From the IMG/VR virus record IMGVR_UViG_3300044941_000276, positions 41,642 to 105,641 of that record: a stretch of 64,000 nucleotides of DNA; one strand, written 5' to 3'. Position numbers and translations under genes: made by a program. A model generated the notes under the pieces. It was not told where the DNA came from. It saw only the letters and a program-made list of their open reading frames with translations, and did not search any database. Below, in pieces: positions 40,007 through 56,920 of the stretch (within the stretch, counting starts at the first letter, position 1; every line of letters starts with the position of its first letter). Origin of the DNA: a virus.

Positions 40007-40357
40007 GTCGGGTAGGTCCCCCTTCGGGGGTAAGTGTGCCTCAATCATTAGCCACATGATGAGAGGCACAACCATACACTCGCCACACGGTGTATGGTAA
40101 GTAGCAAGTGTGGGCATATTTTCATTGTCTTGGTTGAAAATATGCTTCCCCAGATATCTGGGAGTGGGTTTTTTTAAAAAATCCAAGACATCCACCCCTC
40201 AGTCCGAGTGAGGGAGAGTGTGACCAAGTTGTTGTAACCATCCGACAACTTGGCACACGAGGTGGATTATGTAGGCAAATTGAAGACGCCTAATCTCGGA
40301 ACGGGGTAAGCCGAAAACTCATAAAAAGAGTAGGCGTAAATTGAAAACGACTAGTTT
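40007..40357 (+). ncRNA. structured non-coding segment (hairpins, pseudoknots, AAUUGAA loops)
   Basis: Back-to-back inverted repeats, e.g. CCCC-TTCG-GGGG, ACCATACAC/GTGTATGGT, GCATATTTTCA/TGAAAATATGC. Confidence 0.55.
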
Positions 40358-41387: not shown

Positions 41388-41804
41388 ATGAACAAGAACA
41401 CATTCGTTTTTGTGATCACCATGTTGGTGGTCACAATCTTTTTGGCTGCCGCTGCGGTAGCCAAGCCCCGCCCGAAATGGGTGCGGGTTAGCCACTCTAT
41501 CTTATCAACCGTTGACCGTATCGACCGAGATACGGTTGCAATTAAGCTCACCTTCGTCCGCTTTGACGGCGAAGGTCGTCCTACTATTGGTCAAAATTTG
41601 GGTCACTTTATTATAGAAGTGGCCTTCACAGTCGACCGCTCAGAGGCGGTACGCATTTTAAACGGCGGGCAGTTGTCCGCCAACGGGCATGTCCTCGCCC
41701 GTATAAGCGAGGGCACCAAAATAATTCGTGACCCTGAGGGTCGCGAAATCCGCCGTATGAAAGCGGCGGATATCTGCAAGATCCTTTATGGGTCTTCAGA
41801 GTAA
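41388..41804 (+). CDS. early secreted/membrane protein
   Basis: Likely start MNKNTFVFVITMLVVTIFLAAAAVA (signal peptide). Confidence 0.65.
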   Translation: MNKNTFVFVITMLVVTIFLAAAAVAKPRPKWVRVSHSILSTVDRIDRDTVAIKLTFVRFDGEGRPTIGQNLGHFIIEVAFTVDRSEAVRILNGGQLSANGHVLARISEGTKIIRDPEGREIRRMKAADICKILYGSSE

Positions 41805-41809
41805 AAAAG

Positions 41810-41843
41810 ACAAGGCGGTTTCTATGAAATCGCCTTGTTTTTT
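41810..41843 (+). terminator. rho-independent terminator
   Basis: ACAAGGCGGTTTC-TAT-GAAATCGCCTTGT-TTTTT. Confidence 0.85.
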
Positions 41844-41844
41844 A

Positions 41845-42941
41845 TCAGGGTGAGAATCCCTGACAAGCCTGTGGGGCTCATGTCTTGCTAAGGCATTGTT
41901 GCACTTGTATAGGGGAAGAGTAGTAAAGTCGAGTAATATTGCTGCGTTAGGTAATACTATAAGCATTATGAAAGAGGAATATCTATTTTGACTATATGGC
42001 GCAATGTCTGATCAAGCATTAGTGCGGACTCAAAAATCAGGCAGTGGTACAGCCTTAATCTGTACAAATCTTTGTTTATCAAAGATTAACAAGGAAATAA
42101 CCAATACCTTGTCCTAACTATGGGTAAAATAGTAGTCGTCCTTTTTTTAAATGTATTTTTTAAACCTGTACTATCGTCCCCGGATAGTACATCAATAGTG
42201 GCACAAGGAGGCCGCGAGGGGCGAAGACATATGGTCTTCAATGTTTAACAAATCGTGGTATTGAGCTAGACCACGTTGAAATAGTTAGCTCGCCTGTCCA
42301 CAAACACGGAGGTGTGACAGGTTCATGGGAGAAGAAGAGGCCGTCAATATTAAACGACGTGTCTCTAAAGAGAAAAGGGTTTCCGTGTTGCGACTGAATC
42401 TCATGTCGCACAAGTTAACGACTTGACCCGAGATATATGTAGCTCTATACATTAACAATAACTACGTCAACAATAGATGTAGGGAGTGGTGTATATCTAT
42501 ATATGTACGATTTGAGACTGGACAACTCAAATCAATATGTACAATGTCCAATAGCCGTACGCCACAACGGCTATGATATCTTAAGATATAGGTCGATATT
42601 AAAAGACCTTATCTTAGATATAATTATTTTAGTCAAGGGCATGAATCGGGGTTGACATCCCGATAAGGGTATGGAGTAAAGACCATACTTGAAAACGTCA
42701 GCGTCCGATAATCAAATCAACAATAGATTTGAGGAGGACGTTAAGGCGAATTGAAGTCGCCGTCATTTTTCTATCCTGTACGGATAGTTGTCAAAGTCGA
42801 CCATGGGACTAAGACGTAAAAACAGAAAGAAGCCTAAGTCGTGCGATGCTTCGCATCGATATGGTGAGCGCTCATGGTTATAGTAGGAGACTACGACAAT
42901 GTCGTATGTCGTTATTACTACTGAATAAGTCCGAAAGGACT
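41845..42941 (+). ncRNA. ~1.1-kb ORF-free structured region (candidate large ncRNA or ncRNA array)
   Basis: Dense hairpins, long-range stems (GCCTG/CAGGC, GACCATGGG/CTCATGGTT), pseudoknots; ends at a hammerhead. Confidence 0.5.
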
Positions 42942-42997
42942 CTGTCGTCTATGTGCGTGGCTGTGCATAGGCCTGATGAGGGGTTAACCCGAAACAG
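42942..42997 (+). ncRNA. type III hammerhead ribozyme
   Basis: CUG-UC | stem I 42947-56/42963-72 | CUGAUGA 42973-79 | stem II GGG..CCC | GAAA 42991-94 | CAG; GUC cleavage after 42946. Confidence 0.85.
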
Positions 42998-43087
42998 TAT
43001 TGCCCGCGTAAAATAAGACTGCGTTAAGGTCTTGTGAGTGATGCGTGCCCACTCAGAACGGCATTAATTTTTTATCCAAAATTGAAG

Positions 43088-44212
43088 ATGGATAGAAAAT
43101 TAATTAACGCCCTAGAATGCGAAAAGTATATACAGAAAAAACTTTTCGCGTTCAACGCCGGCAAGACGCTGGCTAGGGCGTGGAACGCGGGGGAAAATTG
43201 TCTTCTTACCGGACCTGGTGGGTACGGTAAGACGGACGGAGCTGCTTTGTTCTTTGAGTATCTCAAAGAACAAGGGGCTTTGTCTGACGAACGTCCATAC
43301 GTATTGGCGTTCGGACAGGGCATGACTGAGGAAAGGTTATTCGCTGGGTTGGATATCAAACGCTTTCAGAATGAAGGCGAATTGGTGTACAACCTGAAGA
43401 AGGCCTTCGTATCCTTCGAATATGTAATATTCGAGGAAATGTTCGACGCATTTCCTGGGGTATTGCTTATTCTGAAGGATGTTCTTCAGTCTAAGAGCGT
43501 ACGGTTAGGCGACACCGTATTTCCCTTGCGAACTAAATTTATAGTCGCCTGTACCAACCGTAGCAATGAGGAAGTCGCTACGGATAGAAGTACATGGGCT
43601 CTTTTAGAAAGATTCGTCTTTCAAAAAGAGGTAACCTGGACTTCGTGGGAAAAGTCCGACTACCTCTCGGCTTTCGAGGCAGCCACAGGCCAGAAAGCTG
43701 ATTCCGTAATGGAGGCTGTGGCAAGAATAGCTGCTGCCAGCAGCAAAGGTGAGATGAAGATCTCGCCTCGTACTGCTGGTAAAGGTCTTAAGGCAGTAAA
43801 ACAAAACGGTAACGACATTACCGTTTTGGAAGACATTCTCGGCTTCGATAAGAAGTCGGTAAGAGAAGTCTTCACTGCTATGGAAGGCATAGCAGCAGAC
43901 AAGGCTCAACGTGACCACGTAGCTGCGGTGGTCGCGTTATGTAAGCAGACAGCAGCTACTTCTTCGAATTCCGCCATTAAATTGGCGGTTGCCGCTAAAC
44001 GAGTTCACGTAGAACTCGAAAAACTTAGTGGAATTCAACGTCGTGATGCGAACGTTGAATTGTTCGAGGAAAGCATCATTGTCATAGAGAATCTGAGGGA
44101 GTCTCTATGGCAAAGAGCCAAGTCCCTTATTAACAAGCCACCAGTTGGCAGCTTGGCAGAGTTTATACAAAACTCTAGCACAAGCTCATTCGACTGGAGC
44201 TTGTTGAGATAA
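43088..44212 (+). CDS. MoxR/RavA-like AAA+ ATPase
   Basis: Walker A GPGGYGKT, Walker B VIFEE, ACTN, ALLERF, ISPR; likely start MDRK at 43088. Confidence 0.85.
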   Translation: MDRKLINALECEKYIQKKLFAFNAGKTLARAWNAGENCLLTGPGGYGKTDGAALFFEYLKEQGALSDERPYVLAFGQGMTEERLFAGLDIKRFQNEGELVYNLKKAFVSFEYVIFEEMFDAFPGVLLILKDVLQSKSVRLGDTVFPLRTKFIVACTNRSNEEVATDRSTWALLERFVFQKEVTWTSWEKSDYLSAFEAATGQKADSVMEAVARIAAASSKGEMKISPRTAGKGLKAVKQNGNDITVLEDILGFDKKSVREVFTAMEGIAADKAQRDHVAAVVALCKQTAATSSNSAIKLAVAAKRVHVELEKLSGIQRRDANVELFEESIIVIENLRESLWQRAKSLINKPPVGSLAEFIQNSSTSSFDWSLLR

Positions 44213-44290: not shown

Positions 44291-45520
44291 ATGAAAAAAA
44301 GAACCATACCCCACCATCTGTACGTTGAGCCTACGCGGCGAGACGTACAAGAAAGATTTAAGGAGTTAGGTTTTGATAAAACCTACTCTTATGATCTCGT
44401 ACGGGATATTGCTAATGCGATGTCTCACGTACAGAATGGTGGGAAAGTCACTGACGCAATGACCAACGTCAGTGATTGGGTTCTTCCTTCTGACTATAAG
44501 TCAGAGAGGGAATATCAAAGAGCACTCTCGTATCACGAGAATGTTCAAAGATTTATTTCTTCTCTTGACTTTGACAAGTTCAGTGGCAATACTCCGCTTG
44601 CAAAAGCGGCAAGTGTTGTAGCTGCACTGTCTAGTCAAGAAGGGGGACAAGGCGAGGAGGGTGATGGTCAACCCTTGCCAATCTTCCGAGGTTCGTCAGA
44701 ATCTATGGAAGAAAAGGCTAAAAAGTTGGAAGAGGCAGTTGATCAAACTGTCGAGGCCAATAAAAGCCTTGCGAGGTACATCATCAATCCTGATGAGGCC
44801 TCCCCAGAGGTGGCTCTCGCGACCTTGAACAGCGAGAATCGGGACCTCTTAGCCAAGTTAGCGCTACTTGGTGACAGGGGTAAGATACGTTCACAGCGCA
44901 CTTCTCCCACAAACAAACTCACTCAAATGAGTGAGTATTCACAGGTGGGTCGTGTGAATAATATGAGTAGTATGTTTCTCCCAACTTTCGGGTATAAATT
45001 TGCGACCAAGCAATTGGTTGTGAAAGAACCCGAACAATCAACGAGACAAACCCTTGTCTTATTGATTGACAACAGCGGTTCTATGGACGAGACCGACAAA
45101 TTAAGTTGGGTCAAAGCCATAGTAGTTAACAGATTAGACGCTGTTAGTAAGGGAGAAGCTGAGTTGTATATCGGTTGGTTTGAATGTTCTCTTGATGAAG
45201 AGAACATTGTTAAAATTGCCAACAAAAAAGAAGCCATAGCTTTTTTACAAGAAGGCTTCTTGGGTAATTTTAACGGGGGAAAAACTGATATACAACGGGC
45301 CATTGAACAAGTTTGCGAGGGAATCAAACTTGGAAGGCTCGGTAATTATTCCCTCAACGGAGTTAAGCCTCAAATCGTTGTAATGAACGATGGGCAAGAC
45401 TTTGTTGATAGCAATTATAAACCCAGTGTTGTGACTCACGGGTTTATCTTAGGGCGTGACAATGACGGAATGAAGTCAATGATCGCCAATTGCGGAGGTC
45501 ACTATGAGAGATTTTTATAA
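44291..45520 (+). CDS. vWA-domain protein (ViaA-like partner)
   Basis: MIDAS LIDNSGSM, GG.TDI, MNDG. Confidence 0.85.
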   Translation: MKKRTIPHHLYVEPTRRDVQERFKELGFDKTYSYDLVRDIANAMSHVQNGGKVTDAMTNVSDWVLPSDYKSEREYQRALSYHENVQRFISSLDFDKFSGNTPLAKAASVVAALSSQEGGQGEEGDGQPLPIFRGSSESMEEKAKKLEEAVDQTVEANKSLARYIINPDEASPEVALATLNSENRDLLAKLALLGDRGKIRSQRTSPTNKLTQMSEYSQVGRVNNMSSMFLPTFGYKFATKQLVVKEPEQSTRQTLVLLIDNSGSMDETDKLSWVKAIVVNRLDAVSKGEAELYIGWFECSLDEENIVKIANKKEAIAFLQEGFLGNFNGGKTDIQRAIEQVCEGIKLGRLGNYSLNGVKPQIVVMNDGQDFVDSNYKPSVVTHGFILGRDNDGMKSMIANCGGHYERFL

Positions 45521-55753: not shown

Positions 55754-56920
55754 ATGACAAAGATAAATCTCACAGAACTACAAAATTATTTTAATGAACG
55801 CATGTATGGTTTTGATGCCAAAATATTTGGTATTGCTTGGAATAGTAATCAAAATGTATTACTGACAGGTCCAGGTGGATATGGTAAAACATACAGCGCT
55901 CAATTATTTTATGATTTTTTAGTACATAAAGGTATATTTCCAGAAGGTAGTAAACCTTTCGTTCAATCATTAAATCCCGATACTACCACTGAAAAGATCT
56001 TTGGCGGTACTAACATTAAAGAATTTACCGAAAACGGAGCTATGGTTTATAATTGCCATAATAGCTTTGCTAACGCGCCTTTTGTTATCTTTGAGGAGTT
56101 TCTTGACGCACCATCATCTTCTTTGATGGCTCTTAAAGATGCTCTTACTTCTGGATATGTCAGAGATGGTCTTTATACCTATGAGGTAAAAACAAAGATG
56201 ATAATTGCTTGTACTAATCTTTCAGCAGATGAATTTGCGGAAGATGATGCTACACAAGCTTTATTAGAGCGTTTTAGATTTCAAATGGTTGTACGATGGA
56301 ACAGTCATACAGAAGACGATTATATAAAGTCCTATGAAATAGCAACTGGTAATAAAGGAGACAATATCATTGTTAAAGCAGTAGCCAATGCGGCAGCTGC
56401 TTCTTACGGTGTAGGTGGAGATCGTCCAGTAAGTCCTCGTACTTATATGACAGCGGTTGAAGCTTGTAAAGGATGTGATAAAGATATAGATCCTTTGACT
56501 CCGTTGTATTATATGGATTATCCTGGTGGGTTCAAACCAGCAGCTGTTAAAACTGCTAGCGCTAATCTTGCAGCTTTAAGAAAAGTTATGGAAGATCTTG
56601 AAAGATTAGCCAATTATCAAAGCATGTGGGATACTTATAAAGAGAACTTTAAGACTACGGCTAAAAATATTAACGAAGAAAACTTAATCAAGTTATATAA
56701 TATGGCCGCTAAACTTAAAGAAACTTTAAGCGAGGTCTCGCTTATTAAAGTTACAGATAACGCTTTACCTAACTATCGTAAACTTCTTAGTAGCTATAAA
56801 AGTTTATATACTAGTTGGTATGAGTTTATCGCAAATAAAGTCAAAGAAGACCCATCAATTACTAACGAAAATCTTTTAAAATTATCCAATAGTAGTGTTG
56901 AAAGATATGAATTCAATTGA
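55754..56920 (+). CDS. MoxR/RavA-like AAA+ ATPase (paralog 2)
   Basis: GPGGYGKT; VIFEE; IACTN; ALLERF; VSPR. Confidence 0.85.
   Translation: MTKINLTELQNYFNERMYGFDAKIFGIAWNSNQNVLLTGPGGYGKTYSAQLFYDFLVHKGIFPEGSKPFVQSLNPDTTTEKIFGGTNIKEFTENGAMVYNCHNSFANAPFVIFEEFLDAPSSSLMALKDALTSGYVRDGLYTYEVKTKMIIACTNLSADEFAEDDATQALLERFRFQMVVRWNSHTEDDYIKSYEIATGNKGDNIIVKAVANAAAASYGVGGDRPVSPRTYMTAVEACKGCDKDIDPLTPLYYMDYPGGFKPAAVKTASANLAALRKVMEDLERLANYQSMWDTYKENFKTTAKNINEENLIKLYNMAAKLKETLSEVSLIKVTDNALPNYRKLLSSYKSLYTSWYEFIANKVKEDPSITNENLLKLSNSSVERYEFN

Follow-up and report, generated by a model that had tools for sequence, protein, structure and literature searches.

A candidate type III hammerhead ribozyme in the leader of a phage MoxR-vWA operon, in the position held by Hatchet ribozymes in homologous operons

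It is still an open question which role self-cleaving ribozymes play in bacteria and phages. Hammerheads have been known at phage gene boundaries since 2011 and flank genes in prophages (PMC3088659). Unrelated ribozyme classes, namely hammerhead, twister, twister-sister and pistol as well as hatchet, share gene contexts (PMC6765202), and these shared contexts were used to discover Hatchet (PMC6765202, PMC4604424), while the reason for the shared gene associations was described as unknown in a 2019 review (PMC6765202). The phage locus analyzed here offers a compact, testable case. It raises the question of whether a hammerhead-like motif between a long structured RNA and a MoxR-vWA operon is a true ribozyme, and it bears on whether cleavage acts on the stability or translation of the mRNA or on how a large phage non-coding RNA matures. 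Our analysis suggests that positions 42942-42997 probably form a genuine type III hammerhead, which would lie in a long early plus-strand transcript and part the structured RNA from the MoxR-vWA mRNA.

The window, that is, the whole stretch of DNA analyzed in this study, takes up the final 64 kb of one virus contig, which is 105,641 bp long and has a GC content of 32.5%. The contig contained genes encoding the portal and large terminase proteins, both on the minus strand, as well as tRNAs and a DUF805b RNA (Rfam), and its early region on the plus strand is rich in non-coding DNA. All sequencing runs with this DNA are hot-spring or microbial-mat metagenomes, in which it was present on DNA contigs. 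A stretch of 1.28 kb (41805-43087) with a local GC content of 41% was free of ORFs of at least 60 aa and is bordered on its 5' side by a small ORF that ends at 41804. On its 3' side, two genes follow on the plus strand: one encoding a MoxR-type AAA+ ATPase (43088-44212; PF20030 bpMoxR, E 1.7e-7, and PF07728), the N-terminus of which aligns with homologues, and one encoding a vWA-domain protein (44291-45520; PF13519 VWA_2, E 1.6e-6). The PF20030 and PF13519 matches bear out the downstream MoxR-vWA operon that the first-pass annotation had named, and the AUG-containing hairpin that it had placed at the start of moxR was found as a 16-bp hairpin (43063-78 paired with 43089-104) enclosing AAAUUGAAG and the MoxR AUG. 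The leader from the ribozyme to the AUG (42998-43087, plus strand) includes the 5' arm of this hairpin. No sigma-70-like site was found on the plus strand of 42998-43087, and the host promoter type may differ from sigma-70.

A second bpMoxR paralogue was identified at 55754-56920 on the plus strand (PF20030, E 4e-9), followed by a 461-aa ORF without a Pfam match. This paralogue is packed directly behind an ORF and has neither a leader nor a ribozyme. The sequence AAAUUGAAG recurs on the plus strand at 40278, 40693, 42749, 45811, 46149, 48258, 48529, and 55622.

Read base by base on the plus strand, 42942-42997 contains the parts of a hammerhead in the order stem III 5' strand, cleavage site, stem I hairpin, core, stem II hairpin, GAAA, and stem III 3' strand. 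This is the type III topology, with stems I and II closed by loops and stem III open. The first part (42942-42946) consists of CUGU (42942-45) and C17 (42946), and the GUC triplet (42944-46) puts the predicted scissile bond at 42946/42947. The stem I hairpin (42947-42972) is formed by 10 pairs between 42947-56 and 42963-72, three of them G-U, with the loop GUGGCU (42957-62). It is followed by the core positions C3-A9, CUGAUGA (42973-42979), and by the stem II hairpin (42980-42990), in which GGG (42980-82) and CCC (42988-90) form three pairs around the loop GUUAA. The last part (42991-42997) contains G12, A13, and A14 of the core and the 3' strand of stem III; GAAA occupies 42991-94, and ACAG (42994-97) forms four pairs with CUGU (42942-45). 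All of the invariant core positions are present (C3 U4 G5 A6 N7 G8 A9; G12 A13 A14; C at position 17), as are the conserved pairs A15.1-U16.1 (A42994-U42945) and G10.1-C11.1 (G42980-C42990). The complete core, the GUC triplet, the 10-bp stem I, and the 3-bp stem II reported in the first-pass annotation were all found in place, and the stem III that it had called short has 4 bp (ACAG/CUGU).

The motif has the same catalytic core and three-helix junction as the natural hammerheads of bacteria, prophages, and phages (PMC3088659; Rfam clan CL00010). Its short stems II and III are in keeping with that group (PMC3088659), since in natural hammerheads stem II often has only 2 bp and a weak stem III is common (Perreault 2011, PMC3088659). 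It differs from them in that, as a type III motif, it has an unusually long and regular stem I (10 bp) and no visible loop-loop pseudoknot (PMC3088659), and in that it scores below every Rfam hammerhead model and is paired with a Hatchet instead of other hammerheads. Stems I and II were folded as described by ViennaRNA, and the CUG at 42942-44 has a rival for the CAG at 42995-97 in the minimum-free-energy fold, namely the CUG of the core. By inspection, loops I and II (GUGGCU and GUUAA) share no Watson-Crick complementarity, and no obvious tertiary contact was seen. Because no tertiary contact or pseudoknot is visible and stems I and II have 10 and 3 bp, this might be a slow 'minimal' hammerhead.

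Two further candidates in this region were rejected: a pseudoknot of loop I with 43004-07, the geometry of which is implausible, and a 56-aa ORF across the ribozyme (42846-43016), the frame of which is broken by a 1-nt insertion in a sibling phage (L001). Additionally, the minimum-free-energy fold of 42860-43110 (z -4.5) contains a helix between 42863-42878 and approximately 43040-43056 that encloses the whole hammerhead. If real, this long-range helix would hold both cleavage products together.

A descriptor scan on both strands of the 105,641-bp contig returned 42942-42997 as its single match. The same descriptor in its loose form gave 0.07 matches per genome in 300 first-order Markov genomes and 11 matches in 20,000 random 1.3-kb regions of local composition, and a strict form near the observed quality (at least 8, 3, and 4 pairs in stems I, II, and III, respectively) gave none in either set. 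Chance is excluded as the source of the motif.

Infernal with the Rfam hammerhead models, the check named in the first-pass annotation, failed to recover the motif: no match reached the gathering score, and the best model was Hammerhead_II with 16.5 bits against 37. No Rfam hammerhead was found by cmscan at gathering score in the window, the rest of the genome, L001, or the loci L004-L019 and L023-L031, and none at E<=10 in 41700-43200 (1.5 kb) or in L011 700-1060; RF00008 had no match at E<=10 in the whole genome. On the 91 nt of 42925-43015, cmscan reported only Hammerhead_II (E 0.24), in another register. This register would be a type II hammerhead (RF02276) at 42929-42989 that uses the upstream GAAA of a UCC-GAAA-GGA hairpin, and it is the only Rfam hammerhead alignment obtained. 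In addition to its score far below the gathering score, its stem III would need GGACUCUG (42937-44), which allows no pairing beyond A-U, and its stem II would have only 2-3 trans pairs, whereas the downstream GAAA, the closed stem II, and the 4-bp stem III make a complete type III fold. The type II register was rejected on the score and because stem III cannot form, and we regard it as exceedingly improbable.

The failure of the Rfam models to recognize the motif is also in line with a hammerhead-like relic or a chance look-alike that does not cut in vivo, the stems of which would act as a protein-binding or stabilizing hairpin. The lack of an evident tertiary contact and of covariation points in the same direction, and tests have shown certain hammerhead-like RNAs to be inactive despite good cores (Perreault 2011, PMC3088659). 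However, the Rfam negative is uninformative here and weighs little, because canonical phage type I hammerheads are also missed. Canonical-looking type I hammerheads, found in IMG/VR contigs by pattern scan (L026 975-998, L027 405-428, L029 2236-2259, and L031 709-732), likewise scored below the Rfam gathering score. These results point to a sensitivity gap, with the Rfam hammerhead models under-calling phage hammerheads. Given that all invariant core positions are intact, that the motif is not produced by chance, and that bona fide Hatchets occupy the same slot in relatives, we consider a non-cutting relic quite unlikely and continue with the type III hammerhead.

One sibling phage (L001), with a MoxR protein that is 95% identical, was found in IMG/VR. 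Its hammerhead has 1 change in 56 bases, G42971A, by which the stem I pair U42948-G42971 becomes U-A, and run X7, which comes from the same mats, contains this variant on a contig. The hammerhead comparison rests on this one relative sequence type (L001 and the X7 contig), and its single, one-sided change is no real covariation. Nucleotide identity between the window and L001 was 75% in the upstream ORF, 89% in moxR, 96% in both the structured RNA (42120-42941) and the vWA gene, 98% in the hammerhead, and 99% in the leader. The higher identity of the hammerhead and leader compared with moxR and the upstream ORF fits a constraint on the RNA, and the high identity to L001 could come partly from recent recombination or phage mosaicism, as the vWA gene is also 96% identical. 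A blastn search of 41800-43100 against 50,697 phage records gave no match; scans of IMG/VR with the MoxR protein and alignment found nothing beyond the L001 contig, and a MoxR scan of GTDB genome contigs had no match. Exact and degenerate hammerhead patterns recovered the L001 contig from IMG/VR, along with unrelated hammerheads, mostly of type I. In four sequencing runs, only the L001-like variant was recovered, with none in run X9.

More distant MoxR operons provided a second line of comparison. Protein search identified 47 MoxR homologues, including P0002-P0006 with 53-77% identity. Leaders were compared in 16 distant loci (MoxR amino acid identity 41-54%) from an alignment-based scan of JGI metagenomes; the leaders of P0002-P0006 lie outside this comparison. 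A Hatchet (RF02678, 51-56 bits) was identified on the MoxR strand in 8 of the 16 loci, which represent five lineages by moxR identity: L004 (1329-1402), L006 (1216-1289), L007 (2226-2299), L008 (2869-2943), L010 (1397-1471), L017 (2802-2875), L018 (1378-1451), and L019 (2872-2945). The Hatchet-bearing loci are marine and sediment metagenome contigs. The distance from the Hatchet end to the MoxR AUG was 49 nt in L004 and 51 nt in L010, the two loci in which it was measured. The Hatchets are 85-100% alike, compared with 67-83% for moxR, and have compensatory changes in the variable hairpin, which indicates that they are under selection. In two lineages (L005 and L009/L011-13), no known ribozyme was found upstream of MoxR with Rfam. 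A literature search that excluded the gene list of Weinberg 2015 found no link between self-cleaving ribozymes and MoxR. The placement upstream of MoxR ties the Hatchet class to a specific gene. The predicted hammerhead of the window fills the slot that Hatchet holds in homologous operons, and this position is the strongest evidence for it. With a complete core and topology, an occurrence beyond chance, retention in the sibling, and Hatchets in the same slot, the type III hammerhead that the first-pass annotation had proposed for the MoxR-vWA leader stands as a well-supported candidate.

Long ORF-free stretches were recorded in three of the Hatchet-bearing loci (L007 1-2349, L008 410-2932, and L010 1-1460).

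The window and its relatives also share the order of leader elements, first a hairpin with the loop CAACAAUAG, then one with the word found before the AUG, and after these the ribozyme, followed by the AUG. In the window, this leader module spans 42713-42761 on the plus strand and is followed by the hammerhead. It contains a hairpin with the loop CAACAAUAG (42713-42731; second copy at 42462-42482) and a hairpin with the loop AAUUGAAG (42745-42761), the same word that precedes the MoxR AUG. In the relatives, the word preceding the AUG is AUAGAAGA, and each of the two words also appears in a leader hairpin loop. In the relatives, the CAACAAUAG loop motif precedes the Hatchets by approximately 75 nt, and the predicted CAACAAUAG-loop hairpin is a conserved RNA signal. 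In an nhmmer comparison of the intergenic region with L004-L019, only the Hatchet part matched.

The CAACAAUAG motif starts at 1252 in L004, 2786 in L008, 2494 and 2724 in L017, and 2564 and 2794 in L019. The hairpins that carry it have unrelated stems and occur on the plus strand only, in non-coding stretches upstream of MoxR genes whose products are 41-54% identical.

Compared with the MoxR Hatchets (L004, L006-L008, L010, and L017-L019), the candidate hammerhead has the same slot, strand, and neighboring leader modules. The cut, which in the window is a predicted one, is at the 5' edge in both cases, with the ribozyme on the downstream mRNA and the 5'-OH at the foot of a helix, and a hairpin is located just 5' of the cut in both (P0 there and UCC-GAAA-GGA, 42930-39, here). 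In contrast, their folds and cores are unrelated, and the hammerhead is 90 nt from the AUG, whereas the Hatchets are approximately 50 nt from it.

The first-pass annotation had further suggested that cleavage may be switchable, with UACUG (42919-23) pairing with CAGUA (42995-99), blocking stem III, and keeping the ribozyme off until a signal arrives. The two segments, TACTG and CAGTA in the DNA, exist and are complementary, and a competitor could win against a stem III of only 4 bp. The proposed pairing itself is unsupported: it has no comparative backing, and the predicted fold places the upstream segment in a local helix (42914-22 with 42881-86). Within 80 nt, chance would be expected to give a 5-bp match, neither arm varies in L001, the sole relative compared, no ligand-binding or other sensor element was found by Rfam in 41700-43200, and no analogous competitor was seen in the Hatchet leaders of the relatives. 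Such a regulated switch is therefore very unlikely in our judgment.

Hammerhead cleavage leaves ends with a 2',3'-cyclic phosphate and a 5'-OH, and Hatchet cleaves at its 5' edge and remains part of the RNA downstream. With stems I and II and the short stem III in place, self-cleavage between C42946 and G42947 is predicted from hammerhead chemistry. The upstream product would be the ORF-free structured RNA, with ...CUGUC and a 2',3'-cyclic phosphate at its 3' end; as only the 4-bp stem III would hold this product, it could leave. The downstream product, the MoxR-vWA mRNA, would carry its 5'-OH on G42947, where the 10-bp stem I begins, and would retain the rest of the ribozyme. In this way, the ribozyme would uncouple the structured RNA from the mRNA and leave the mRNA with a hairpin-capped 5'-OH end, which should be a poor substrate for 5'-monophosphate-dependent RNases. 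The intergenic position in a phage transcript fits the proposal made for natural hammerheads that cleavage turns long phage RNAs into mRNAs of operon length (PMC3088659).

As the Hatchets in the same slot also cut at their 5' edge, the comparison suggests that the cut and the type of end are selected rather than the ribozyme class. The interchange of ribozyme classes at one gene context, with the implication that cleavage is selected, has a parallel in the shared contexts described previously (PMC6765202). Here, the exchange falls within one homologous operon leader and the gene is named (MoxR-vWA). A stronger version of this reading is that, to be expressed, the MoxR-vWA operons in this group of phages depend on a 5' end made by a ribozyme, with a 5'-OH flush with a hairpin. 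We put this forward only tentatively and regard it as doubtful. If true, this requirement would explain the replacement between Hatchet and type III hammerhead at one slot, and it would be the first concrete biological role for Hatchet and phage hammerheads, namely an mRNA 5'-end device that acts on stability or translation. To our knowledge, nothing comparable to ribozyme-enabled translation initiation has been shown for bacterial translation. In RNA viruses of fungi and plants, diverse ribozyme classes are found in the 5'-UTR just upstream of an ORF, and self-cleavage makes the 5' end of the translated RNA (Lopez-Galiano 2026, PMC13725137). Those systems are eukaryotic and cap-independent, and the likeness to the phage locus is an analogy only (PMC13725137).

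The intergenic region of the window also contains a Hatchet of its own, 0.9 kb upstream of the hammerhead, which is the only other ribozyme signal on the contig (Rfam). It was identified at 41841-42042 on the plus strand as a full-length match to RF02678, including the conserved core and P1-P4 (70.3 bits, E 2e-12; the gathering score is 51), with an insert of approximately 130 nt in the variable hairpin. The first-pass annotation had not named this element. A P0 hairpin has been described for approximately 90% of hatchets (Li 2015, PMC4604424), and a P0-like hairpin is found directly 5' of the window Hatchet (41810-41838, plus strand); a U run follows it, so it is also terminator-like. L001 lacks the Hatchet and approximately 80 nt after it, and the X7 contig skips 41840-42154, a segment with CCTTGT on either flank. 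Because the Hatchet is absent and the hammerhead is kept in L001 and X7, the upstream Hatchet is dispensable.

Between the two ribozymes, 42043-42941 on the plus strand contains no ORF of at least 60 aa, is 96% identical in L001 from approximately 42120 on, and had no Rfam match at E<=10. The 3' part of this RNA folds far better than shuffled sequences (z -4.5), and ORF-free stretches of 1-2.5 kb are also found upstream of the Hatchets in relatives. The stretch could represent either one large non-coding RNA of the phage or several RNA modules. It is conceivable that the main job of the ribozymes is to shape this RNA. Hatchet would supply the 5'-OH end, and the 3' end with its 2',3'-cyclic phosphate would come from the hammerhead. 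An RNA of approximately 1.1 kb would be freed, and a host RtcB-type ligase might circularize it. The ORF-free RNA lies between two ribozymes of the same strand, and the cut sites leave almost no hammerhead sequence on it. The conservation, the stable 3' fold, and the comparable stretches in relatives would also fit this reading. RtcB joins 5'-OH and 2',3'-cyclic-phosphate ends, which are the two end chemistries expected here. Against it, the variant of L001 and X7 has no Hatchet, yet the RNA and the hammerhead are kept, so that neither a 5' end made by a ribozyme nor, in consequence, the forming of a circle is indispensable. In addition, no RtcB gene (PF01139) was found on the contig, although hosts often have RtcB. 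We consider it unlikely that shaping the upstream RNA is the main job of the pair. This reading is nevertheless compatible with release of the mRNA by the type III hammerhead, and the Hatchet-hammerhead pair might additionally set free the 1.1-kb structured RNA as a well-defined and perhaps circular molecule. A non-coding RNA bracketed by two ribozymes that would leave 5'-OH and 2',3'-cyclic-phosphate ends is reminiscent of viroid-like RNAs and retrozymes (PMC7761336). The present case differs from these in that it concerns a DNA phage and two different ribozyme classes, the sibling does without the 5' ribozyme, and the circle is hypothetical.

Relative to previously known phage hammerheads, the locus adds a candidate hammerhead missed by Rfam and a swap between the Hatchet and hammerhead classes within one homologous operon leader. 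It also adds a Hatchet and a hammerhead that bracket a conserved large RNA of no known family, and variants with and without the second ribozyme coexist in the same hot-spring mats.
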